From: Pirellulales bacterium
Lineage (GTDB): Bacteria > Planctomycetota > Planctomycetia > Pirellulales > UBA1268
DNA: 64,000 bases
Reading direction: 5' to 3'
NCBI GenBank assembly: GCA_049695995.1
Contig: JBAVTF010000137.1
Coordinates: 107-64,106, forward strand
The translations under genes were made by a program, and so were the position numbers. The notes under the pieces are model-generated. The model saw only the letters and a list, made by a program, of their open reading frames with translations. It was not told where the DNA came from and did not search any database. Each line of letters begins with the position of its first letter. Position 1 is the first letter of the stretch. Of the stretch, positions 53,205 through 64,000 are shown piece after piece.

Positions 53205-54386
53205 TTACCGGAACGTCAGTTCGAGCATCGAGAAGTCATCTTGGAAGTCGTCGCGGCCGGAGATCGACCGGACGTGGGAGACGAGGGCGTCCATTGGGTT
53301 GGCCGTGGCCGGCCGAGACGACAGCGCGGCGAGGAAGTCCTTGAACGGCCACATTGAGCCGTCAGTCAGGCCGATCTCGAAGGCGCCGTCGCTATACACG
53401 AAGAGGCGGGAACCAGGAGCCACCTGGGTTTCGCTGGAGTCGAATTCGAGGCCGTCCACGGCGCCGATCAGGGGGCCGTCGGAGTCGAGTAACCGCGGCT
53501 CCGCGCCGTCGGGCCCTAGGAGCAGGGCCGGAGGATGCCCGCCGCCAGCCCACCGGAGCCGTCCGGACGGGGCATGGTGCACGCCGTACCAGATGGTGAA
53601 GAACATGTCGTTCTGCCGCTCCATCGGGAAGGCTTTGTTGAGGGCCGCCAGGACGGCGCCGGGATCGTGGAAATCGGTCTGCGGCAGAGCCTCGCTGCGG
53701 ATCGCGTTGAGCGCCGACACGGAGAGCAGCGCAGCCCCCACGCCGTGGCCGCAGACGTCGAGCAGATAGATCGCGAAATGCTCGACGTCGAGCTGGTGGT
53801 AGCCGAAGGCGTCGCCACCGAGCGCTTCCGACGGAATGAACCGCCAGTCGGCAGACACGGAGCCACTCTGCTGCGGCGGCGGCAGGAGCGATCGCACATA
53901 CTGGGCCGCCGTGGCCAGGTCGTTGGCCAGCGTCTGCTGGCTGGCCTGAAGCGCCGTGAAGGCTTCGTTGCGCTCGAGCAGGGCAACGTAGCCCCGCGAG
54001 TGGTACCGCACCCGGGCGATCAGCTCGAGCCGGTCGGGCAGCTTCACGATGTAGTCGTTGGCCCCCACCGCGAAGGCCTCAGCCTTCACCGCCGGCTCCT
54101 CCTTCGTGGAGAGGACGATGATCGGCACGTCGCGAAACCGCTCGTCGGCCCGGAACTGCCGCACGAGCGAGAGCCCGTCGATCTCCGGCATCACGAGATC
54201 CTGGAGGATCACCGTCGGCTGCACTTCCGCGGCCTTCTGCAGGGCCGCCGGAGCGTCTTTGCAGTAGTGGAAGGCGATTCCCGGCTCATCGACGAGCATC
54301 CGACGAACGGCCTCGCCGATGATGGGCTGGTCATCGACGAGCAGCACAGTGGCGACGCGGGCAGCAGGCGTAGCGGGAATAGCCAT
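53205..54386 (-). CDS. response-regulator receiver domain fused to PP2C/SpoIIE-type Ser/Thr phosphatase (RsbU-like)
   Basis: Start at MAIPATPAARVATVLLVDDQP. Receiver motifs (DD, ILQDLVMPEIDG, STKEE, K in DYIVKLP). The PP2C region is GGDAFGY...YLLDVCGHGVGAAL...LFVYSDGAFE. Confidence 0.85.
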   Translation of the reverse strand: MAIPATPAARVATVLLVDDQPIIGEAVRRMLVDEPGIAFHYCKDAPAALQKAAEVQPTVILQDLVMPEIDGLSLVRQFRADERFRDVPIIVLSTKEEPAVKAEAFAVGANDYIVKLPDRLELIARVRYHSRGYVALLERNEAFTALQASQQTLANDLATAAQYVRSLLPPPQQSGSVSADWRFIPSEALGGDAFGYHQLDVEHFAIYLLDVCGHGVGAALLSVSALNAIRSEALPQTDFHDPGAVLAALNKAFPMERQNDMFFTIWYGVHHAPSGRLRWAGGGHPPALLLGPDGAEPRLLDSDGPLIGAVDGLEFDSSETQVAPGSRLFVYSDGAFEIGLTDGSMWPFKDFLAALSSRPATANPMDALVSHVRSISGRDDFQDDFSMLELTFR

Positions 54387-54444
54387 GTGATCACGTCCGA
54401 GGGCCGATGCCCTGGATGCTACCACGCCTGCCCCCGGACCGGCT

Positions 54445-54912
54445 TCACTGTTGGGCTGACCGCGCCGTTTGCCGCTTGGGGCGGCATGTGGGAGACGACT
54501 CGAGGGAGAAGGCAAGAAGTTCTTCGCCGGTCACCGTTGAGATGTCATGGTGCACGCTCACGAGCTTGACGCCCGTGGCGGCTTCCACGACCTCCTCCAG
54601 CCGCGGCCGGCCGGTGGCCACCATGTGGGCCCGCACCTGCTTGAGCAAGGCGCGGCCGTTGCCGTTTCCCGACTCGTGGCCGTTACCCGCGGCGTGGGCT
54701 GCAGAGGTGGCCGGGTGGCCGTCGGGCTCGCCGCCGGCGCGCGGCGCGATGAGCTGCCGCTCCGCCGGCGTGAGCACGCCCTGCAGCCGCACGACGAGGA
54801 GCGACCCGACCAGGTGCGCATGGATGTCGCGCGGCCCCCGGCCGATGAACTCCTGCTGGAACCGCGACACGCCGTCGCAGACGGCGGCCTCGATCTCGCC
54901 CTGCGACTTCAT
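54445..54912 (-). CDS. DUF2294 (MpsC-like) domain protein, paralog 1
   Basis: MKSQGEIEAAVCDGVSRFQQEFIGRGPRDIHAHL...VSVHHDISTVTGEELLAFSL. The first 13 aa are identical to the ORF at 56173. It carries a low-complexity insert with GNGHESGNGNG. Its start lies 2 nt after the csrA stop. Confidence 0.75.
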   Translation of the reverse strand: MKSQGEIEAAVCDGVSRFQQEFIGRGPRDIHAHLVGSLLVVRLQGVLTPAERQLIAPRAGGEPDGHPATSAAHAAGNGHESGNGNGRALLKQVRAHMVATGRPRLEEVVEAATGVKLVSVHHDISTVTGEELLAFSLESSPTCRPKRQTARSAQQ

Positions 54913-54914
54913 GG

Positions 54915-55178
54915 TCAGGCCTCGCGGCGCTGGCCATCCCCCGTCCGTGCGGTCATTCCGGCGGCCGCCGTGGCTGCCTGACCATCGCCGTTGCCGTTGC
55001 CGTTGCAGATCCTGTCCCAGACCTCGCGGCGGTGGATCGGCATCCTGGTATCGGCCTCGAACCCGAGCCGCACGCGGCCCCCTTCGATCTCCAGCACCGT
55101 GATCTCCAGAGCCACCGACATGTCCTCAGGCCGGCCGATCACCACGCTTTCCCGATTCTTTCGTGTCAGCACCAACAT
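54915..55178 (-). CDS. csrA: carbon storage regulator CsrA homolog
   Basis: MLVLTRKNRESVVIG....ITVLEIEGGRVRLGFEADTRMPIHRREVWDRI matches the CsrA pattern MLxLTRKxxExxxIG..I.VxVL.I.G..VRLGI.AP..V.IHR.EV. It has a roughly 10-aa insert and a C-terminal tail with NGNGNGDG. Confidence 0.8.
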   Translation of the reverse strand: MLVLTRKNRESVVIGRPEDMSVALEITVLEIEGGRVRLGFEADTRMPIHRREVWDRICNGNGNGDGQAATAAAGMTARTGDGQRREA

Positions 55179-55216
55179 GGGTCACCTTCTTCATGGTTGC
55201 GGGTCCCTCCAGGGGG

Positions 55217-55732
55217 TCAGGCGCGGACGGCTCCTCTGCCGCCCGTCACGTACGGTCCGTTGTGCGAAGAGGCCACGGCACCGGCGAACTGATCGCGGGC
55301 CATCTGGCTGTGCGACGCGTGCAGATGAGCGTCGATGGGGACGCCGAGCGTCGGTAGTCCCTGGCCAAACAGGAACAGGTCGACGTCGGGATGGGTCGTG
55401 AACGTTTTGAGCACGCTGCCCGTCTCGACATCGACATGGGCGATCGCGCCGTGGAGCTGCACGCCCGTCGCCTCGCGAATGTGCTCGATGAACGACTCGA
55501 CGGCGTGCTGGAAGAGTTCGTGGTGCACGTTCCGCACGCGGTCAGCACCGGCCGGACTGCGGGCCAGCCTCCGCTCCACGCAGGAAAACGGCTCGTGCAG
55601 ATTCACCACCATCCAGTCGCGGGTCGCCACCACCGACACGCTCGTCGGGGACCGGCCCAGCAGCAGATGCTCGAACGTGCCGGCGGCGTGCGCCACCTGG
55701 CGGGCGAGTCGATCGACGAAGAGTCGCGTCAT
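55217..55732 (-). CDS. divergent DUF2294-like protein, paralog 3
   Basis: Start at MTRLFVDRLARQV. The layout mirrors DUF2294 (..GRSPTSVSVVATRDWMVVNLHEPFSCVERRLA...FIEHIREATGVQLHGAIAHVDVETGSVLKTFT). Similarity is weaker, so the call is tentative. Confidence 0.5.
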   Translation of the reverse strand: MTRLFVDRLARQVAHAAGTFEHLLLGRSPTSVSVVATRDWMVVNLHEPFSCVERRLARSPAGADRVRNVHHELFQHAVESFIEHIREATGVQLHGAIAHVDVETGSVLKTFTTHPDVDLFLFGQGLPTLGVPIDAHLHASHSQMARDQFAGAVASSHNGPYVTGGRGAVRA

Positions 55733-55977
55733 GAAAGCGGAACGCCATCGGGTGAGGGAAGTGTGTTGTGTTGTCCGGCACAAACGAAAAAAGCCGGCGG
55801 GAAAGAACGCCCGAAGGCACTCTCTCACGCCGGCTTACGCTGCGACGGACCTCCCGGCATCTGGCCGGGCTGCCCCTCGACTCGTCTTCCGTCTTGTTGT
55901 GGTGGGCGATCACGAAGACCGCCCTTTTCCTCGACCTCGACGCATGCTTGGGCGTCGTCGTTGTCGGGGAACGCCGG

Positions 55978-55986
55978 GATTATATT
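55978..55986 (+). promoter_or_regulatory. AT-rich GATTATATT box (candidate -10 region), second occurrence
   Basis: Identical 9-mer to 29704-29712, again in a divergent intergenic region (55733-56172). Confidence 0.25.
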
Positions 55987-56006
55987 GGGGGGTCTGGGGA
56001 ACGCAA

Positions 56007-56018
56007 GGAAAATTTTCC
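56007..56018. promoter_or_regulatory. perfect 12-bp AT-rich palindrome GGAAAATTTTCC (candidate operator)
   Basis: Perfect dyad 21 nt downstream of the GATTATATT box, in the divergent gap between two DUF2294 genes. Confidence 0.3.
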
Positions 56019-56172
56019 GGCTCGCGTGGTCGCCTGGTCGCGCATCCCGTTTAGATCGCCCAGACGGACCGCGTCGGAGGACGTGTGATGCCCGTCGGTC
56101 ACTTGCGCCGAAACACCTCCTGCACAAAGCACCCCCCCCTCAGTGGGGTTCGCGTCACCAAGTGAGCAGGCC

Positions 56173-56559
56173 ATGAAATCCCAGGGCGAGATCGAGGCCG
56201 CCGTGTGCGATGCCGTTTCGCGATTTCAGCAGGAATACATGGGCCGTGGCCCGCGAAACGTGCACGCGCACCTGATCGAGAACCGCCTGTTCGTGCACTT
56301 GGAGGGCGTACTGACGGCAGCGGAGCAACGGCTGCTCGACGGCGATGGCGTTGCCAACGGCCGTGGCGCTGAACTGCTCAAACAGTTGCGAAACCAGCTC
56401 GTGCTGGCCGGGCGGCCGATGCTCGAGTCACTCGTCCGCGACGCGGCAGGATCCCCTCCGATCAGCGTGCATCACGACATCAGTCCGGCGACCGGCGAAG
56501 AGGTACTCGTGCTCACCCTCGCAGCCGCCCCTACCTGCCGCGACAAGCGGCGGAAATAA
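56173..56559 (+). CDS. DUF2294 (MpsC-like) domain protein, paralog 2
   Basis: MKSQGEIEAAVCDAVSRFQQEYMGRGPRNVHAHLIENRLFVHLEGVLTAAEQRL...ISVHHDISPATGEEVLVLTL. 128 aa. Start chosen by alignment with the paralog at 54912. Confidence 0.75.
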   Translation: MKSQGEIEAAVCDAVSRFQQEYMGRGPRNVHAHLIENRLFVHLEGVLTAAEQRLLDGDGVANGRGAELLKQLRNQLVLAGRPMLESLVRDAAGSPPISVHHDISPATGEEVLVLTLAAAPTCRDKRRK

Positions 56560-56605
56560 CCGTCTCCCAGTCGGTGGCCGAAGGCGTTCGGCCCATCGGA
56601 TCGCC

Positions 56606-56657
56606 GGCGGAGCGGGGGCCTGAGCCGCCCCCGCCCGCCGGCGGTTTTGCTTGTTTT
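56606..56657 (+). terminator. intrinsic terminator/attenuator after the DUF2294 gene
   Basis: GGCGGAGCGGGGG (56606-56618) pairs with CCCCCGCCCGCC (56628-56639) with one bulged A, followed by GGCGGTTTTGCTTGTTTT. Confidence 0.55.
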
Positions 56658-56770
56658 CCCGCAAGGCAGGCCCTGCCGCGGCACCGGCGGCATTGTGATG
56701 CAAGGGGGAAGGAGAGTAGGGTTTCCCGGAGAGGTGGTGTGACCCCCGCCTGTTCGCCGAGTGCTTTCCG

Positions 56771-57088
56771 ATGGTGGCCCTGCTCACCGCCCTGGCGATT
56801 CTCTTCGCCTCCTTCGCGCACTCCCCGGTGCAGACGCCGGGGACTTCGATCACCAAGGCAACTGACTGCGATTCCGATTCTGGTGTCGCTGAGCATGCGA
56901 GCCGGGATGCGGAAGAGGACGCCCCCGAGGAGTACGACCTGAAGGCCGCCGGCGCATGGGGCTGGGCGGCGACCACGCCCCTGCTGCCCCCGGCGTCGTG
57001 CCGCCTCGGAAGTCTACAGGCCCACACGGCCTGGCCGGCCGCTGGACGCCAGCATGGGCCCGGTGTGGTTCGCGGTCCTCCCGCCTGA
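56771..57088 (+). CDS. candidate small secreted protein in the dabA leader (uncertain)
   Basis: 105-aa ORF with a signal-like N-terminus MVALLTALAILFASFAHSPVQ and an acidic middle. GC3 is high in parts. No homology recognised. It could be a non-coding leader. Confidence 0.3.
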   Translation: MVALLTALAILFASFAHSPVQTPGTSITKATDCDSDSGVAEHASRDAEEDAPEEYDLKAAGAWGWAATTPLLPPASCRLGSLQAHTAWPAAGRQHGPGVVRGPPA

Positions 57089-57213: not shown

Positions 57214-60186
57214 ATGCCTGTCTGCGATTCCACTGCCGAAGACCTCGAGCGAATCATCGCCGCAGCAGCACACTTCCTGCCTGCCCAGGGGCCGATCGGT
57301 GTCTTCGTTCACCACAACACGCTGCATGCCTTCGAGAACCTGCCCTTCGAAGACGCGGTCATCAAGGCCGCGCGGACCTACGGCACGGAACCCTTCCTGA
57401 GCGAAAGCCGGTTTCGCGAGGAACTGGCCCGAGGCCGGATCCTGGCCTCCGATATCGATGCCGTGCTGGCCGAGCATGACGCATCGACCACGACCACACT
57501 GGTGGCAGGCGGTCGCGTGCGGCTCCGCGACCTCCACCGGGCCCTCCTCCTCAATCCCGTCCGCCATGAGAGCGACGTCGCCGTTCGCTGGACGCTCACT
57601 GAAAGCGACGCGATCGCGAGGCTGCGGCCCGACCTGGTTGCCGCCGCTGACGATGATGCCGCTCGGGCAGCAGCGAACGACCTGTGGCATGCCTGCATCG
57701 AGGCAGTCGCTCTCGCCCGGCCCTCCATCCAGTCAGTCCCTCCTCCAGTTCGATTCCGCGACCTGCTGCTCGCCGTCGATCCCGCAGTCGATACCGATGC
57801 CCTGGTGCATCCGCTCCTCATTCGGCTCTGCGCTGCCTTTCTCGATCAGGGCGTGGCAGCCTGGCGAATGCCCGGCCGCAGCAAGGGACTCCTCGCGGCC
57901 GTCACGCGGCTCTATTCGGCGGGCTGGGGACCCTCGGAACCATGGAGCCACCGCCTGCCGCCGGCGTTTCGCGAGGCCGCCGGCCGGCCAGCCCTGGAGT
58001 GCATCACCATCGAGCTCGATCGGCTGGGCATCCCGCCGGAACGACGGCAGGAGTTCATCGTGCAGTCGTTGCTCGCGCTGCGCGGCTGGGCGGGCATGAT
58101 CCATCATCTCGAGGAACGTCCCGATCGGGCACCGGTGGAGCAGTTGCCGGCCCGATTGACCGACTTCGTGGCGGTCCGACTGATCTGCGACCGCGTCGCC
58201 ACCGAATGGGCGGCGAGCCGGCTGCGCGGCACCCGCCGCGACCCGGCCGAACCGCCGGCGCTCACCGCACTATGGTGGGAGCTTCAGGATCACCATCCCT
58301 CGCGGCGCGGGCCCGGCAGCGTGGCCCGCGCGTACCTCCTCCACCAGGCCGGCCAGCTCGTCGGCCTCACGGCCGCCGACATCCGCAGCCTCGACGACAA
58401 CGAGTTGCTGCGGTTCGAGCAGGCCATCACGTCGTTCGACGCCATGACACGGCGCCGGCTCTTTCACCTCGCCTACGAGCGCCGCTATCGCGTCACGCTG
58501 CTCGACGCGCTGTCGGCACATGATCGCATCGCGGCCCCTCCCGCAGGCCCGCGTCCTGCAGTGCAGTGGGTGCTCTGCATCGACGAGCGGTGCGAATCCT
58601 TTCGCCGCAACGTCGAGGAACTCGGCGACCAGCACGAGACGTTCGGCACGGCCGGGTTCTTCGCCGTGCCGATGTACTTTCGCGGACTCGACGACTGGCA
58701 CGCGACACCGCTCTGCCCGATCGTCATGCGACCCCGGCACGCGGTGCTCGAAGTGCCCGAGGGGAGCGCCGCCGATCGCCATGCGATGCATCGCTCGTTC
58801 CGCCGTCGCTACGGCCAGCTCACTGGCAGCCTTGCCGCCACCAGCCATTCCGTGCTGCGCGGCGGCCTGTTCGCACCGCTGATCGGCGGCCTGTCCGCCG
58901 TGCCCCTGGTGGCCCGCGTCGCCTTTCCAAGGCTCTCGGCCCGACTGGGCCGCGTGGCGACGGAGTTCACCCGCCGCCGGATCACGACGCGGCTTGACCT
59001 CGAAAGCGGAGGGCCGACGAGCGGCAGTGACCCGGCCGCGGGTTTCGACGTGGCGGAGATGGCCGAAATCGTTCGCCGCGTCCTCGAGGACATCGGACTC
59101 ACGACGCGGCTCGCGCCGCTCGTCGCTGTTCTGGGGCACGGCTCGTCGAGCCGCAACAATCCGCACGAAAGCGCCTACGAGTGCGGCGCCTGCGGCGGCG
59201 GCCGCGGGGGCCCCAACGCGCGGGCCTTCGCGATGATGGCCAACGATCCGCGGGTGCGGGAACGTCTGGCGGCAGATGGCCTGGCAATTCCTCCCAACAC
59301 GTGGTTCGTCGGGGGCATGCTCGACACCTGCGCGAGTACGATCACCTGGTACGACACAGATCTCGTGCCCCCCGGACAGACTGCGGCCGTCGCAGCCTTG
59401 CGGGCCACGGCGGAACGGGTAGCCGCCGCGGATGCCCGGGAGCGGTGCCGTCGCTTCGACTCAGCGCCGCTCGATATCACCGCTGCAGAGGCCCGTGTTC
59501 ACGTCGAGTCGCGGAGTGTCGATCTGGCCCAGGTGCGGCCGGAACTGGGGCACGCGACCAATGCCGCCTGCATCATTGGTCGCCGCTGGCGAACCAGGGG
59601 TCTCTACCTCGACCGGCGGGCGTTCCTGGTTTCCTATGACCCGTCGACGGATGGCGACGCCTCGATCCTCGCTCGAACACTCGCTGCCGTCGGGCCCGTC
59701 GGCGCCGGAATCAACCTCGAATACTACTTTTCCGTCGTCGATCGCCTCGGCTATGGGGCAGGCACGAAGCTGCCACACAACATCACGGGACTGATCGGTG
59801 TGATGGATGGGCATGCCAGCGACCTCCGAACCGGCCTGCCGTGGCAGATGGTCGAGATCCACGAACCGGTCCGCTTGCTCGTCGTCGTCGATGCCACGCC
59901 GGAGGCCATCCTCGCGGCAGCGGCACACGTCCCCGCCGTGGCCCGGCTCGCTGCGAACCGGTGGATCCAGCTCGTCTCGTGGCATCCCGTGTCAGGTGAA
60001 TTGGCGATCTTTCGTGACGGCAGCTTCGAGCCCTACGCCCCAGAGCGACAGCTGCTGCCCGAGGTACGCCGCTCCCGCGACTGGTATGGCGGACACCGCG
60101 GCCATCTCGAGCCGGCGGTCATCCAGAGCTGCCTCACGTCGAATGTTCAAACGGGGCGTCCCGCGGCAACGGAGAACCTCTCGTGA
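57214..60186 (+). CDS. dabA: DabA (DUF2309) inorganic-carbon transporter subunit, beta-CA-like
   Basis: Start at MPVCDSTAEDLERII. PIGVFVHHNTLHAFE, WVLCIDERCESFRRNVEE and GHGSSSRNNPHESAYECGACGG give the Cys/Asp...His/Cys pattern of the DabA zinc site. About 990 aa. The upstream 86 codons of the track ORF are rejected. Confidence 0.9.
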   Translation: MPVCDSTAEDLERIIAAAAHFLPAQGPIGVFVHHNTLHAFENLPFEDAVIKAARTYGTEPFLSESRFREELARGRILASDIDAVLAEHDASTTTTLVAGGRVRLRDLHRALLLNPVRHESDVAVRWTLTESDAIARLRPDLVAAADDDAARAAANDLWHACIEAVALARPSIQSVPPPVRFRDLLLAVDPAVDTDALVHPLLIRLCAAFLDQGVAAWRMPGRSKGLLAAVTRLYSAGWGPSEPWSHRLPPAFREAAGRPALECITIELDRLGIPPERRQEFIVQSLLALRGWAGMIHHLEERPDRAPVEQLPARLTDFVAVRLICDRVATEWAASRLRGTRRDPAEPPALTALWWELQDHHPSRRGPGSVARAYLLHQAGQLVGLTAADIRSLDDNELLRFEQAITSFDAMTRRRLFHLAYERRYRVTLLDALSAHDRIAAPPAGPRPAVQWVLCIDERCESFRRNVEELGDQHETFGTAGFFAVPMYFRGLDDWHATPLCPIVMRPRHAVLEVPEGSAADRHAMHRSFRRRYGQLTGSLAATSHSVLRGGLFAPLIGGLSAVPLVARVAFPRLSARLGRVATEFTRRRITTRLDLESGGPTSGSDPAAGFDVAEMAEIVRRVLEDIGLTTRLAPLVAVLGHGSSSRNNPHESAYECGACGGGRGGPNARAFAMMANDPRVRERLAADGLAIPPNTWFVGGMLDTCASTITWYDTDLVPPGQTAAVAALRATAERVAAADARERCRRFDSAPLDITAAEARVHVESRSVDLAQVRPELGHATNAACIIGRRWRTRGLYLDRRAFLVSYDPSTDGDASILARTLAAVGPVGAGINLEYYFSVVDRLGYGAGTKLPHNITGLIGVMDGHASDLRTGLPWQMVEIHEPVRLLVVVDATPEAILAAAAHVPAVARLAANRWIQLVSWHPVSGELAIFRDGSFEPYAPERQLLPEVRRSRDWYGGHRGHLEPAVIQSCLTSNVQTGRPAATENLS

Positions 60187-61523
60187 CTCACCACGATTTG
60201 GTTTCGGCACTCGTCGTCGCCCAACTCGCCGCCCCTGCGGCCGCGCTCGTCGCCATCGGCCTGCCGGCGCTGCTCGGCCACCCCCTGTCGGAAAGGCTCA
60301 CGCGGCGGAGCGTCGCCACCGGCTTTGCCGTGGGCTTCCTTGCCGCAGCCGCCACGCTCGCGCTCGTGGCCGCCCGTGGCTGGCGGGCCGAGATCGTCAA
60401 CGTGGGCACCTGGTTCGTCATCGGCCACCACGAGCACACGATCAACCTCGTGGCCGACCCGCTCTCCACGCCCTACGTCTGTTTCTCCACCGGCCTGTGC
60501 TGGCTCGTGAACGCATTTGCCGGAAAGTACCTGCACCGGGAGCCGGGGTTCACGCGGTTCTTCGTTCTCCTGGCGCTGTTCGGCACGGGCATGAACCTGA
60601 TGGTGCTCGCCGACAGCATCGACGTCTTGTTCGTGGGCTGGGAATGCCTCGGTATCTCCTCGGCCCTGCTCATCGGCTTCTTCCACGAGCGGCGCAACGC
60701 CATCGATGCGGCGCTGCGTGCCTACACGACGTACCGCGTGTGCGACGTGGGCCTGCTCGTGGCGAGCGTCGTCGTGCATCGGGCCGTGGGCTCAGGGGCG
60801 TTCGAGCGGCTGTTCACGACCGACTGGCCTGATGGAAATTGCCTGCTGCCTCAGGCGACGGCGTCGGTCGTGGCCCTCCTGCTCGTCTTCGCGGCGCTCG
60901 GCAAGACCGCCCAGGTGCCGTTTTCGGCCTGGCTCCCCAGGGCGATGGAAGGCCCGACACCGTCGAGCGCGATCTTCTACGGCGCGTTGTCGATCCATGC
61001 CGGCGCCTACGTGCTCCTCAGGTGCGGGCCGCTCCTCGACGAGGCACCGCTGGCCCGCGGGGCATTGCTGGTGATCGGTGCCGGCTCCGCCCTGCACGCG
61101 GCGGTGGTGGGCCGGGTGCAGACCGACCTCAAGAGCATGCTCGCCTATGCCTCGATGGCCCAGGCCTCGCTGATCCTTGTCGAGATCGGTCTTGGGTGGC
61201 GGCTCATTCCGCTCGTGCACGTGGTGAGCCATGCGATCCTGCGCAGTCTCCAGATCCTGCGGTCCCCATCGGCGCTGCACGACCGCCATGAGCTCGAGGC
61301 AGCGATCGGCGGTCCCGTATTGAGTGGAGGCTCGGGGCTCGTCGGCCTCCTGCCGGAAGGCTGGCAGGTCCGGCTCTATCGAATCGCCCTCGACCGCGGA
61401 TTCGAGGAGATGGCTGTCGGGCGGTTCGTGGTCGCACCGGTGATGGCGGCACTCCGTCGAGCGGCGGCCATCGAGAACGCCTGGATCGCCTGGCTGGCCG
61501 GCGAACATGGAGGACGACCGTGA
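60183..61523 (+). CDS. dabB: NuoL/ND5-like proton-conducting membrane subunit (DabB-like)
   Basis: GTG overlaps the dabA stop (GTGA). GKTAQVPFSAWLPRAMEGPTPSSAIFYGALSIHAGAYVLLR and LKSMLAYASMAQASL are the PF00361-type core motifs. 446 aa. Confidence 0.85.
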   Translation: MTHHDLVSALVVAQLAAPAAALVAIGLPALLGHPLSERLTRRSVATGFAVGFLAAAATLALVAARGWRAEIVNVGTWFVIGHHEHTINLVADPLSTPYVCFSTGLCWLVNAFAGKYLHREPGFTRFFVLLALFGTGMNLMVLADSIDVLFVGWECLGISSALLIGFFHERRNAIDAALRAYTTYRVCDVGLLVASVVVHRAVGSGAFERLFTTDWPDGNCLLPQATASVVALLLVFAALGKTAQVPFSAWLPRAMEGPTPSSAIFYGALSIHAGAYVLLRCGPLLDEAPLARGALLVIGAGSALHAAVVGRVQTDLKSMLAYASMAQASLILVEIGLGWRLIPLVHVVSHAILRSLQILRSPSALHDRHELEAAIGGPVLSGGSGLVGLLPEGWQVRLYRIALDRGFEEMAVGRFVVAPVMAALRRAAAIENAWIAWLAGEHGGRP

Positions 61524-63001
61524 TGCCCGCCGAATCGAACGTCGTCCTGGCGCTCGCGGCGGTGACCGTCGGGCTGCCAGTGTGTGCCGCGGCCGTCGTC
61601 GTCACCGGCGCATGCGATCGCAGGCTGCGGGACGTCGCCGTCGCAGCGCTGCTCGCCGCACTGCTCGCCGCCGGCGGCGTGACCATGACGTGGAACCTCG
61701 CCGGCGGCCGCCCGATCACGATTGGCAGCCAACTCGCCGGTGGATCACTCGTCGCCATCGACGGCCTCTCGACGCTGCTGATGCCCTACGCGGCGTTTGT
61801 CTCGCTGGCCATCCTGCTCGCGGCTCCCCGTCGGGCTCTCGATGCCGCGGGGGTCGCCCGCACGCTCGCGGGCACCGGTGCGACGCTGGCGATGTTCGCC
61901 ACCTCGCACCCGTTCGCGATCCTCGCTCTCTGGCTGGTAACCGCCGCCCTCACGTGGGTCTCCACCCGCGCAACGCCGGGAGGCCGCGGCGCGGCCCGGG
62001 TTTTCGCCATCGCCATGACGACGGCCACGGCGGCCATGACGGTCGGCACCGGCCTGCTCATCAGCGATCCGCCGTGGGAGCGGGCAAGCGGACCGCTCGG
62101 CATCGCGGGGGGCTGGCTCGTCGCCGTCGCCGTGATGATCCGCAAGGGCATCGTTCCATTTCACTCCTGGTATCCGGCGCTGTTCAGCGGGGCCCCGATG
62201 TCGGCGGCGCTCGCGGCCACCATGCCCCAGGTGGCGGCCTACTCCGCCGTGCGGCTGCTCATCGGCCACGTCGATCATGCCGCGGGTCTCGCGCCGGAAC
62301 TGGAGTTCCTTTCCAACGTCGCCCTCGTGACCGCCGTCTACGGCGCGGCCCTGGCACTCGTACAACGCGAGCTGCGCGGGTTCATCGGCTTTCTCGCCAT
62401 GAGCCAGTCGGCGATGGTGCTGGCCGGCCTTTCGGGCACGCTCCCGCTGGAGCTGTCCGGCGCCCTCTGCGTCTGGATCTCGAGCGGCCTGTCGCTCACG
62501 GGCATCGGACTTGTGACCTGGGCACTCGAAAGCCGGGCCGGGCCGATCCGCCTCGACACGCCCCAGGGCCGGTTCTGGGACGCACCGGCGCTGGCTGCCT
62601 TCTTCCTGCTCTTCGGCCTCGCCGGGAGCGGCCTCCCTGGCACGCTCTCATTCGTGGCCGACGACCTGATCGTGTCGGGCAGCCTCGATGAGAAGCTGTA
62701 CGGCGGCCTGCTCGTCACCGCCTCGACGGTGCTGTCTGGAATCGCGGTGATGCGCTGCTGGTTCTTCGTGTTCGGCGGCCCGACCGCTCTTGATGGGCCG
62801 CGTCACGCGATCCTCCGCCGCGAGCAGCTGGCGCTCTCGGCCCTGCTCCTCACGCTGTTCGCGCTCGGCCTCGTTCCCGATCCCTTGGTTCGGGCCATTG
62901 ACAGAGCTGCTGAACAGCTCCTCCATCCCGTGTCTGCCACCTCCATTTTCCCTGCCTCCGTTTCCTCCTCTAACGTTCCCCAGGAGATTGCCACGCCATG
63001 A
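61520..63001 (+). CDS. second antiporter-like (NuoM/NuoN/MrpD-like) membrane subunit
   Basis: GTGATG start overlaps the upstream stop. About 14 TM. KGIVPFHSWYPALFSGAPMSAALAATMPQVAAYSAVRLL and LRGFIGFLAMSQSAMVLAGL resemble diverged PF00361 motifs. Confidence 0.7.
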   Translation: MMPAESNVVLALAAVTVGLPVCAAAVVVTGACDRRLRDVAVAALLAALLAAGGVTMTWNLAGGRPITIGSQLAGGSLVAIDGLSTLLMPYAAFVSLAILLAAPRRALDAAGVARTLAGTGATLAMFATSHPFAILALWLVTAALTWVSTRATPGGRGAARVFAIAMTTATAAMTVGTGLLISDPPWERASGPLGIAGGWLVAVAVMIRKGIVPFHSWYPALFSGAPMSAALAATMPQVAAYSAVRLLIGHVDHAAGLAPELEFLSNVALVTAVYGAALALVQRELRGFIGFLAMSQSAMVLAGLSGTLPLELSGALCVWISSGLSLTGIGLVTWALESRAGPIRLDTPQGRFWDAPALAAFFLLFGLAGSGLPGTLSFVADDLIVSGSLDEKLYGGLLVTASTVLSGIAVMRCWFFVFGGPTALDGPRHAILRREQLALSALLLTLFALGLVPDPLVRAIDRAAEQLLHPVSATSIFPASVSSSNVPQEIATP

Positions 63002-64000
63002 CGCCGTTCCTTGCATGCCCATCCCTGCTTGGCTCACTCCCGCCTGCGGTTCTGGCGATCGCCTCGGCCGATCAGCTTGCCCGAATCCTCGAGTCGCTCG
63101 AGCGCAATCTCCTCACGCCGATCCCGCTCTGCTTCGTGCTGGGCATCATCTGCACGCGGATCCACGGCGGCATCAAGATCCCGAAGGAGCTCTATCTCTC
63201 GATCGCCATCTTTTTGCTGATGTCGATCGGCTTCGTCGGTGGCCACGAGCTGGCCCACGAGTATCAGGCCCACGGCGTCTCCACGATCTGGAAGCCGGCG
63301 CTGGCAACGCTCTTTCTCGGCTGCCTGACCCCGATCACGTCGTTTCTCGTGCTCCGGTATCTCGGCCGCCTGTCGATCGCGGATTCGGCGGGTATCGCGG
63401 CCCACTACGGCAGCACGTCGGCCGTTACCTACGCCGTCGCCAATTCGTTCGTGGAACAGACCCAGCATCCGGCCAACAGCTTTCTGCCGACGCTTGTCAC
63501 GATCCTCGAATGCCCCGGCATCGCGATCGCGCTCGTACTGGGGGCGGCGCTCATGGCCCAGGAACGGGCCGCCAAGGCGGGAGCCCGGGGAGGGAAAGCG
63601 CGGGAAGGCAAGCTCGGAGAGGCGCTGTACGAGGTGATGACCGGGCAATCGATCATGCTCATGGCCGGACTGCTCGTGATCGGCTTCATCTCGACCATGT
63701 TCATGTCTGAGCAGGCGTTCCAGCCCTTCTACGACTTCTTCCAGAGCAAGGGCATGCTGTTCCGCGGCGCGCTCTGCATCTTTCTCCTCGAGATGGGGCT
63801 CGTGGCAGGCGAACGCCTCGGCGACCTCTTGAAGGTCGGACCGTTCCTCGTGGCGTTCGGCATCGGTATCGCCCTCGTGCACGGGTTCCTCGGCGCCTAT
63901 TTCGGCCATCTTGCCGGCCTCAACCTCGGCGGCTGCACGGTGCTCGCCGCGATCGTGGCCAGCGCCTCCTACATCGCCGCACCCCCCGCCGTGCGGCTCA
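62998..64000 (+). CDS. sbtA: SbtA-type sodium-dependent bicarbonate transporter family permease (3' partial, runs off the window)
   Basis: Not in the ORF track because there is no stop in the window. I translated it by hand from ATG 62998, which overlaps the upstream stop (ATGA). IAAHYGSTSAVTYA, FYDFFQSKGMLFRGALCIFLLEMGL and LVHGFLGAYFGHLAGLNLGGCTVLAAIVASASYIAAPPAVR align closely with my recollection of cyanobacterial SbtA. Confidence 0.85.
   Translation, partial: MTPFLACPSLLGSLPPAVLAIASADQLARILESLERNLLTPIPLCFVLGIICTRIHGGIKIPKELYLSIAIFLLMSIGFVGGHELAHEYQAHGVSTIWKPALATLFLGCLTPITSFLVLRYLGRLSIADSAGIAAHYGSTSAVTYAVANSFVEQTQHPANSFLPTLVTILECPGIAIALVLGAALMAQERAAKAGARGGKAREGKLGEALYEVMTGQSIMLMAGLLVIGFISTMFMSEQAFQPFYDFFQSKGMLFRGALCIFLLEMGLVAGERLGDLLKVGPFLVAFGIGIALVHGFLGAYFGHLAGLNLGGCTVLAAIVASASYIAAPPAVRL

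Follow-up and report, generated by a model that had tools for sequence, protein, structure and literature searches.

The 64 kb window analysed here (64,000 nucleotides of contig JBAVTF010000137.1, from a Pirellulales bacterium) contains a csrA gene set among three genes of the DUF2294/MpsC family, and this locus is a conserved regulatory cassette. Its conserved core is an operon in which csrA is preceded by one MpsC gene (A-type) and followed by another (C-type), with a third MpsC gene (E-type) transcribed divergently. A gene cluster for DAB-type inorganic-carbon uptake and a phosphatase gene are optional neighbours. The most conserved element of the locus is a structured leader RNA between the divergent genes, which the initial annotation of this DNA had missed. 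We tentatively read the cassette as a CsrA switch under protein modulation, with an attenuator RNA as its gate and a link to a stress and envelope regulon, and we put the chances of this reading somewhat short of even. As part of it, we infer direct contacts of MpsC with CsrA and of CsrA with the leader. All coordinates refer to the 64 kb window (Table 1).

CsrA is among the best-studied post-transcriptional regulators of bacteria, and its known antagonists are decoy small RNAs (sRNAs), FliW and CesT. We know of no planctomycetal CsrA paralog with a known function. Planctomycetota have many CsrA paralogs (PMC13443453). The literature that we searched contains no link of DUF2294/MpsC with CsrA, and neither there nor in Rfam did we find a description of the csrA-MpsC cassette or of the leader RNA. 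The conserved and apparently translationally coupled cassette offers a testable hypothesis for the function of both protein families.

Table 1. Features of the csrA-MpsC locus and its surroundings, in positions of the 64 kb window.
Feature	Position	Strand	Evidence and remarks
REC + PP2C (SpoIIE-family) phosphatase	53205-54386	-	Response_reg 75 bits and SpoIIE 145 bits; last gene of the operon
C-type MpsC	54445-54912	-	Pfam MpsC 102.9 bits (cut-off 23), in two stretches split by an Asn-Gly-rich insert
csrA	54915-55178	-	CsrA PF02599 62.7 bits (cut-off 27)
Non-coding spacer before csrA, 38 nt	55179-55216	-	Conserved GGARGGAYCC and AAGGUGA (Shine-Dalgarno-like)
A-type MpsC	55217-55732	-	Pfam MpsC 52.3 bits (cut-off 23); divergent DUF2294 domain with C-terminal extension
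Structured leader RNA	55772-55902	-	P1-P2-P3 domain, single-stranded 5' CGGAAGACGAG, long intrinsic terminator with U-run
Leader/operon promoter	55979-56018	-	-10 TATAAT at 55984-55979; -35 TTGCGT at 56006-56001; conserved in 25 species
5' untranslated region of E-MpsC	56108-56149	+	Conserved CCGAAAC and C-run/G-run hairpin, about 25 nt before the start codon
E-type MpsC	56173-56559	+	Pfam MpsC 94.2 bits (cut-off 23); canonical DUF2294, divergent from the leader
Intrinsic terminator of E-MpsC	56600-56655	+	Scanner match 56631-56644 with T-run
Inorganic-carbon cluster	57214-64000	+	dabA, dabB, second antiporter-like subunit, Sbt_1; facultative neighbour

Conservation of the csrA-MpsC cassette

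The five open reading frames (ORFs) of the initial annotation are present where it had placed them, and the lengths of their orthologs back the shorter start codons that it had chosen. Searches with hidden Markov models (HMMs) bear out its assignments to PF10057 and PF02599 (bit scores in Table 1). A six-frame HMM scan of the window detects one CsrA gene and three MpsC genes, and no more. The stop codon of csrA and the start codon of C-MpsC are separated by 2 nt (TGACCATG), a distance that ranges from 2 to 14 nt in the gene calls of relatives. The 2-nt junction suggests translational coupling.

Close relatives were collected by scanning a single genome for each GTDB species. The scan returned 118 relatives, the best 80 of which were used; all 80 are metagenome-assembled genomes (MAGs), mostly labelled Planctomycetota or Pirellulales. 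The search patterns were back-translated, and the resulting census covers the window's own CsrA clade rather than all planctomycetal csrA genes. The window proteins were mapped onto the relatives, and the denominators given are the loci with enough room. Several contigs with a Pirellulales-type cassette (L014, L015, L016, L045 and others) had been deposited as 'Candidatus Kuenenia' or 'Chitinophagaceae' MAGs, and these labels are probably binning or labelling errors.

The cassette recurs in about 80 species-level genomes of a freshwater clade, and about 95% of them keep the order A-MpsC, csrA, C-MpsC with a divergent E-MpsC. The gene directly upstream of csrA is A-MpsC (74/78 loci), the one directly downstream is C-MpsC (64/65), and a divergent E-MpsC is found upstream of csrA in 57/63. 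Contigs with 74-90% identical CsrA have the same cassette, and in one lineage it is located away from the tuf and DAB genes and lacks the phosphatase. The neighbours in five relative sets include tuf, secE, nusG and rpl genes, DAB genes, a DUF87 ATPase, a peptidase and phosphoenolpyruvate (PEP) carboxylase; no flagellar genes are among them.

A more distant set was obtained by scanning metagenomes with a wider MpsC subfamily that has about 50% identity to E-MpsC. There were matches at more than 600 places; 80 loci, originating in soil, peat and sediment, were retained. An A-type MpsC is divergent from an E-type MpsC in about 35 of these loci, and a csrA of the insertion-bearing subfamily described below follows A-MpsC in 9 of the 16 loci with room for it. 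The proteins of the csrA-bearing arrangement are 48-65% (CsrA) and 33-45% (A-MpsC) identical to those of the window, and the A-type subfamily also recurs in distant loci at 31-35% identity. On two long contigs (L175 and L176), A-MpsC overlaps csrA by 7 nt. We saw no C-type MpsC after csrA in the distant metagenome loci. The linkage of csrA with DUF2294 genes that the initial annotation had singled out is thus conserved, both in the clade and in distant loci, and a functional tie between these genes is strongly supported by synteny over deep divergence. Where csrA does not follow A-MpsC in the distant loci, a radical-SAM-like ORF takes its place. In a GC-rich subgroup (L131, L133, L147 and L162), this ORF starts MRLYLINPNNPLVSLANVEESRWN and its product is, by eye, radical-SAM/B12-binding-like.

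The leader RNA and its putative regulon

In the window, the divergent E-MpsC gene and the A-csrA-C operon have a control region of 440 nt in common. An alignment of this E/A intergenic region (400-650 nt) from 25 species revealed a non-coding block that is far better conserved than the flanking genes. The block comprises a promoter, a variable stretch and the leader itself, some 130 nt that hardly vary and whose end is about 50 nt away from the start of A-MpsC. A sequence HMM found it in 89 of 92 sources, and the three sources without it have less than 800 nt of upstream sequence. In three clade loci that have upstream sequence and no A-MpsC, the leader is located directly before csrA.

In the RNAalifold structure, the leader is a stack of three helices (P1-P3) with the terminator behind it. 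Within the clade (alignment A6), 96.3% of cells are paired and double changes are found in 15 of 28 pairs, with 115 double-change cells compared to 21 in shuffles; none of 500 shuffles was as high. The broader alignment that covers the distant loci (A9) has double changes in 19 of 28 pairs (170 double-change cells compared to 32.8), among them a UA-to-GC swap in P1 between the two lineages. The window leader folds with -104 kcal/mol (z = -6.3) and scores 137.6 bits with covariance model R1, and it is the one true copy in the window. A weak second match of the model (56554-56663), considered as a leader copy before dabA, is only the terminator of E-MpsC. A search of Rfam 15 at E<=1 resulted only in tRNAs in the window region. 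In one distant locus, the only Rfam hits were chance matches to miRNA models, far below gathering scores and away from the leader copies.

The leader is preceded by a promoter of the form TTGCGT-N16-TATAAT and a variable stretch. A simple sigma-70 promoter/terminator scanner misses both this promoter, whose -35 element is matched at only 3 of 6 positions, and the long terminator; the two calls rest on conservation and folding. Directly upstream of the -35 element is a perfect palindrome, GGAAAATTTTCC (56007-56018), which is kept in the freshwater clade but is not conserved in distant loci. It might serve as an UP element or as a site for a transcription factor common to the divergent promoters. 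The space between the terminator and the start of A-MpsC is too short for an obvious separate promoter, and A-csrA-C is therefore most probably expressed by read-through of the leader terminator.

The leader is not restricted to csrA operons. Paralogous copies include L074:4977-5105 and L068:5182-5309, and in relatives further copies precede genes for XDD4-family, exosortase-dependent PEP-CTERM surface proteins. Almost every distant locus has the leader (54-104 bits), and 2-3 copies in one locus are frequent. Invariance of the unpaired 5' CGGA exceeds 97%, a TTGC(N)T-N16/17-TA(N)AAT promoter pattern precedes the copies in the distant loci too, and each copy ends in a terminator hairpin with a U-run. 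The Pfam-confirmed genes directly behind leader copies in distant loci are all co-oriented with them (12/12), at distances of 15-150 nt. These genes encode a sigma-70-family factor, DnaK, Hsp20, a STAS protein, a receiver protein and a PAS histidine kinase, as well as a fatty-acid desaturase, FloA, DUF3309, an S14 paralog, a transketolase and a glycosyltransferase. The two long contigs L175 and L176 carry an island with STAS, DksA-like, YflT, CsbD, DUF3309, BON and Dps genes. The leader is present there in 5 copies over 20 kb and in 6 over 14 kb, and all 11 are co-oriented with the next gene. At such a density, a single genome could have dozens of copies. The leader is absent from Rfam 15, supported by covariation and multi-copy, and it is a candidate new class of regulatory RNA. 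It may give access to the stress-response circuitry of a lineage that is abundant in the environment and for the most part uncultured.

With a structured 5' leader and an intrinsic terminator before several operons of a regulon, the arrangement is like that of known attenuators (the TRAP/trp leader, PyrR, ANTAR targets and riboswitches). It differs from them in that there is no covariation-supported, mutually exclusive antiterminator and in that the regulon covers broad stress and envelope functions, not one pathway. The leader may itself be a riboswitch or a physical sensor of a stress signal (an alarmone, an ion or temperature), with MpsC and CsrA merely co-regulated in a general-stress regulon and making no direct contacts. 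A compact three-helix domain whose junction nucleotides do not vary, a P3 that differs in length between copies and an adjacent terminator are typical of riboswitches, and the housekeeping-type promoters, the many unrelated downstream genes and the classic stress genes among them (dnaK, hsp20, CsbD, YflT, BON, Dps and DUF3309) would fit such a sensor. The tight coupling of MpsC with csrA (2-nt and 7-nt junctions) over deep divergence would then be left unexplained, as would the frequent divergence of E-type MpsC and the leader. The alternative antiterminator lacks covariation support, and we see no evident candidate ligand. We consider a riboswitch or physical sensor unlikely.

The Csr/Rsm systems of Gammaproteobacteria (CsrB/C and RsmY/Z) also combine a CsrA homolog with multi-copy, structured GGA-containing RNA that has an intrinsic terminator. 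By analogy with CsrB or RsmY/Z, the terminated transcripts of about 130-190 nt could be the functional products and act in trans as sRNAs that titrate CsrA. The number of copies, the promoter and strong terminator of each, the invariant unpaired GGA and the linkage to csrA all agree with such decoys. However, each RNA has one conserved GGA, whereas known decoys have many, and the strict co-orientation with a next gene at short distance disfavours a trans-acting role: the RNA behaves as a cis-acting 5' leader. It also has no match to the CsrB/Rsm families of Rfam at E<=1. Decoy function is the least probable of the explanations, and we give it hardly any credence.

CsrA and MpsC as components of a putative switch

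The window CsrA scores below the NCBIfam equivalog cut-offs (54.3 bits versus 73 and 50.9 versus 70.1; NF002469 / TIGR00202) and therefore belongs to a divergent subfamily. A 6-residue insertion lies between strands 2 and 3, the tail is NG-rich, and residues 1-64 hardly vary among 20 homologs. Its closest relative in the PDB is chain D of 5DMB, the Geobacillus CsrA from a complex with FliW. The RNA-binding residues are kept: the MLVLTRK and IHRRE stretches align with 5DMB_D and 2JPP_A and are invariant in the 20 homologs. We read the subfamily as an RNA-binding repressor that would autoregulate via the conserved GGA motifs before its own start codon.

Across 80 species, the 38-nt spacer in front of csrA hardly changes and has the pattern YYGGARGGAYCC...AAGGUGA ahead of the AUG. 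A GGA is found at -33..-31 in 64 of these species and at -29..-27 in 68. In the distant family there are 4-5 GGA in the 60 nt upstream of csrA, including the Shine-Dalgarno sequence ACGGAGGUUC. The spacer motif is without significance inside the window alone and gains it only through cross-species conservation; consensus-like CsrA motifs are not enriched across the window. CsrA autoregulation is part of established Csr biology, and GGA motifs in the csrA leader are a further point of likeness to the Csr/Rsm systems. The spacer is a candidate CsrA autoregulatory site and fits such autoregulation.

The three MpsC paralogs are specialised. E-MpsC and C-MpsC have identical first 13 residues (MKSQGEIEAAVCD), and Asn-Gly repeats are found both in the insert of C-MpsC (GNGHESGNGNG) and in the tail of CsrA (NGNGNGDG), all as initially annotated. 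The E-type and C-type proteins both end in a conserved basic tail, CR(D/E)xKKK, which in the window E-MpsC reads P.CRDKRRK. The C-terminal extension of A-MpsC carries a conserved VDLFLFGQGLP..GVP motif. In an AlphaFold2 (AF2) model of A-MpsC, the domain (residues 1-115) has a predicted local distance difference test (pLDDT) score of >90, and the conserved C-terminal motif and tail are predicted to be disordered. A segment that binds a partner would be expected to look like this, conserved yet disordered in a monomer model. For E-MpsC, the AF2 model (pLDDT 89.8) is an alpha/beta fold. A Foldseek search of this model against the PDB found nothing at E<=1e-3 (best TM 0.43), and a PDB sequence search for MpsC came back empty. 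In the 5' untranslated region of E-MpsC, the loop sequence of the conserved hairpin varies between species while the stem is kept (25-species alignment).

Taken together, these elements suggest the following mechanism. The sigma-70-like promoter drives the leader RNA, and transcription of A-csrA-C would depend on read-through of its terminator, i.e., on attenuation. CsrA probably binds the invariant single-stranded 5' CGGA of the leaders and would thereby set termination across the regulon. The MpsC paralogs would be small signalling proteins that bind and modulate CsrA, a FliW-like role with an unrelated fold, and the REC-PP2C phosphatase would provide a phosphorylation input. The module would be a hub of the stress and envelope response and not a dedicated controller of DAB-type carbon uptake.

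The closest precedent is the FliW–CsrA pair of Bacillus subtilis and Campylobacter (5DMB). There, as here, csrA is adjacent to a gene for a small protein and coupled with it in translation (in the window, judging from the 2-nt junction), no multi-GGA decoy sRNA is evident, and CsrA has a C-terminal extension beyond its core; the window CsrA is also closest in sequence to a FliW-bound CsrA. The two systems differ in that the candidate partners here are three DUF2294/MpsC paralogs with an unrelated alpha/beta fold, not one FliW, and that an attenuator leader precedes the operon. There are no flagellar genes near the window cassette, and the MpsC-CsrA interaction is a proposal in the present case.

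Several observations weigh against a CsrA switch of this kind. CsrA dimers prefer two sites, and the leader has only one invariant GGA. The 5' GUCGG of the leader can pair with the 5' arm of the terminator (5 bp, possible in 92.7% of cells), a pairing without covariation support; if it is real, a protein on the 5' GGA would favour termination. In the distant loci, the tightest linkage is that of E-type MpsC with the leader, not with csrA, and in 7 of 16 of them A-MpsC has no csrA behind it. There is no Rosetta-stone fusion of MpsC and CsrA among 150 representatives. A FliW-like fold for MpsC was considered and rejected, with no FliW among the 50 Foldseek matches listed and three candidates that were all PF10057. 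The MpsC proteins are near-neutral (pI about 7-8). In Firmicutes, MpsC genes adjoin transporter genes, and S. aureus, to our knowledge, has MpsC but no CsrA, and thus modulation of CsrA cannot be the only role of the family. Finally, the relatives of the clade census are without exception uncultured MAGs, and shared ancestry may account for part of the synteny.

Some of these observations would also fit MpsC itself as the regulator. MpsC, above all the E-type, could be a trans-acting regulator of the leader family, an RNA-binding termination or antitermination output domain that is ANTAR-like in function, with csrA as only one operon of the regulon or as a cofactor. In 57 of 73 distant loci, the E-type gene is divergent from a leader within 900 nt (median distance about 210 nt), even where A-MpsC and csrA are missing, and E-MpsC lies beside the leader in nearly all clade loci too. 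Two REC-MpsC fusions (P0392 and P0499) among the 150 representatives have an N-terminal receiver and a C-terminal MpsC, and therefore MpsC can act as an output domain of response regulators. The conserved basic tail of the E- and C-type proteins would also fit an RNA-binding protein. Their near-neutral charge does not, nor does a fold without a match to a known RNA-binding fold. Moreover, the paired hairpins with hexaloops that mark ANTAR targets are missing from the leader, and the Firmicute MpsC genes beside transporters come with no sign of a leader RNA. We regard direct regulation of the leaders by MpsC as rather unlikely.

The CsrA switch can also be extended to a bolder proposal. The leader, the CsrA subfamily and the MpsC paralogs together could form a master control of the general stress and envelope response in Planctomycetota-like bacteria, in which CsrA sets termination and is itself switched by DUF2294 proteins under phospho-control (REC-PP2C and REC-MpsC). 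We consider this proposal doubtful. If it is true, DUF2294 would have a function for the first time, CsrA would act at intrinsic terminators in a new way, and the leader would be a new class of transcription attenuator.

Optional neighbours: the phosphatase and the carbon-uptake genes

The REC-PP2C phosphatase shows the DVCGHG, YSDG and DD motifs. Its gene lies downstream of C-MpsC in 35/47 relatives, a frequent but optional member of the locus. The domain architecture is like that of RssB of Pseudomonas, yet the protein scores 105 compared to an equivalog cut-off of 700. The likeness to RssB and RsbU-RsbY systems extends to the regulon of the distant loci, which has STAS, sigma factor and general-stress genes. 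On the other hand, the PP2C gene is missing from a quarter of relatives, and a tblastn search for STAS in the 64 kb window gave no significant match, in agreement with the initial annotation. STAS genes are found only behind other leader copies, in distant loci.

The cluster downstream of E-MpsC encodes a protein with a DabA match (766 bits), two with Proton_antipo_M and one with Sbt_1 (246 bits). The second Proton_antipo_M subunit is located at 61520-63001, and the Sbt_1 Na-dependent bicarbonate transporter starts at 62998 and runs off the window. In relative L001, a SulP transporter fused to a P-II domain occupies the position of Sbt_1. The initial annotation had proposed that the MpsC paralogs and CsrA form a post-transcriptional switch dedicated to inorganic-carbon uptake (DabAB). 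In favour of this, E-MpsC adjoins the cluster of dabA, dabB, antiporter-like and Sbt_1 genes in the window, and the association recurs elsewhere, with MpsC beside DabAB in staphylococci and directly upstream of Sbt_1 in Anoxybacillus. The comparative data do not bear this out. DabA is found within 10 kb upstream of csrA in 22/43 clade relatives only, and neither DabA nor Sbt is present in the 80 distant loci. The third DUF2294 gene is indeed oriented toward dabA, as described, but E-MpsC has its own terminator and a gap of 650 nt separates it from dabA, and it is therefore not co-transcribed with dabA. There is no leader copy before dabA, and the GGA sites suspected in the dabA leader amount to 2.0 per 100 nt, compared to 2.5 in the E-MpsC leader and a background of 1.4-1.5, which is at most a weak enrichment; no GGA is found at the dabA start. 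Control of DAB carbon uptake is not supported, and we consider a dedicated carbon-uptake switch very improbable.

The initial annotation had stated that DUF2294 was named MpsC after the third gene of the S. aureus mpsABC operon and that it has no known mechanism; the origin of the name and the lack of a known function were confirmed (PMC6689103). Deleting mpsC in S. aureus is without phenotype, and MpsAB does not require it (PMC6689103), a further point against a dedicated role in carbon uptake. The S. aureus MpsC and the window paralogs are alike in family (PF10057 / DUF2294, YbcI-type), and one of the window paralogs neighbours DabAB. The differences are that mpsC is the third gene of its operon while E-MpsC is upstream of dabA, with the terminator and 650 nt in between, and that three specialised paralogs surround csrA and the leader here, with DAB adjacency optional. 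Transporter linkage is found elsewhere in Firmicutes. A plasmid of Staphylococcus pettenkoferi (L093) has a nuoL-like–dabA–hypothetical–DUF2294 cassette between IS6 elements, which is a mobile mpsABC. On an Anoxybacillus plasmid (L092), the DUF2294 gene is directly upstream of the Sbt_1 bicarbonate transporter gene, and in Acetoanaerobium MpsC is beside an MFS transporter and a Na/H antiporter. The link of the MpsC family to carbon or ion transport recurs, but it is not what is conserved around csrA.

A small ORF (56771-57088, plus strand) is located between the E-MpsC terminator and dabA. Its product has a hydrophobic N-terminus and no Pfam match. A 49% identical protein (E = 3e-23) is encoded at the same position in relative L001 (6019-6396, minus strand), and the ORF may be a real small gene. 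In other relatives (L004-L009, L074 and L045), E-MpsC has as neighbours a BBP7 porin-like gene and a large gene for a DUF87/HerA-like ATPase of about 820 aa, and the same neighbourhood also contains leader-preceded XDD4/PEP-CTERM genes.

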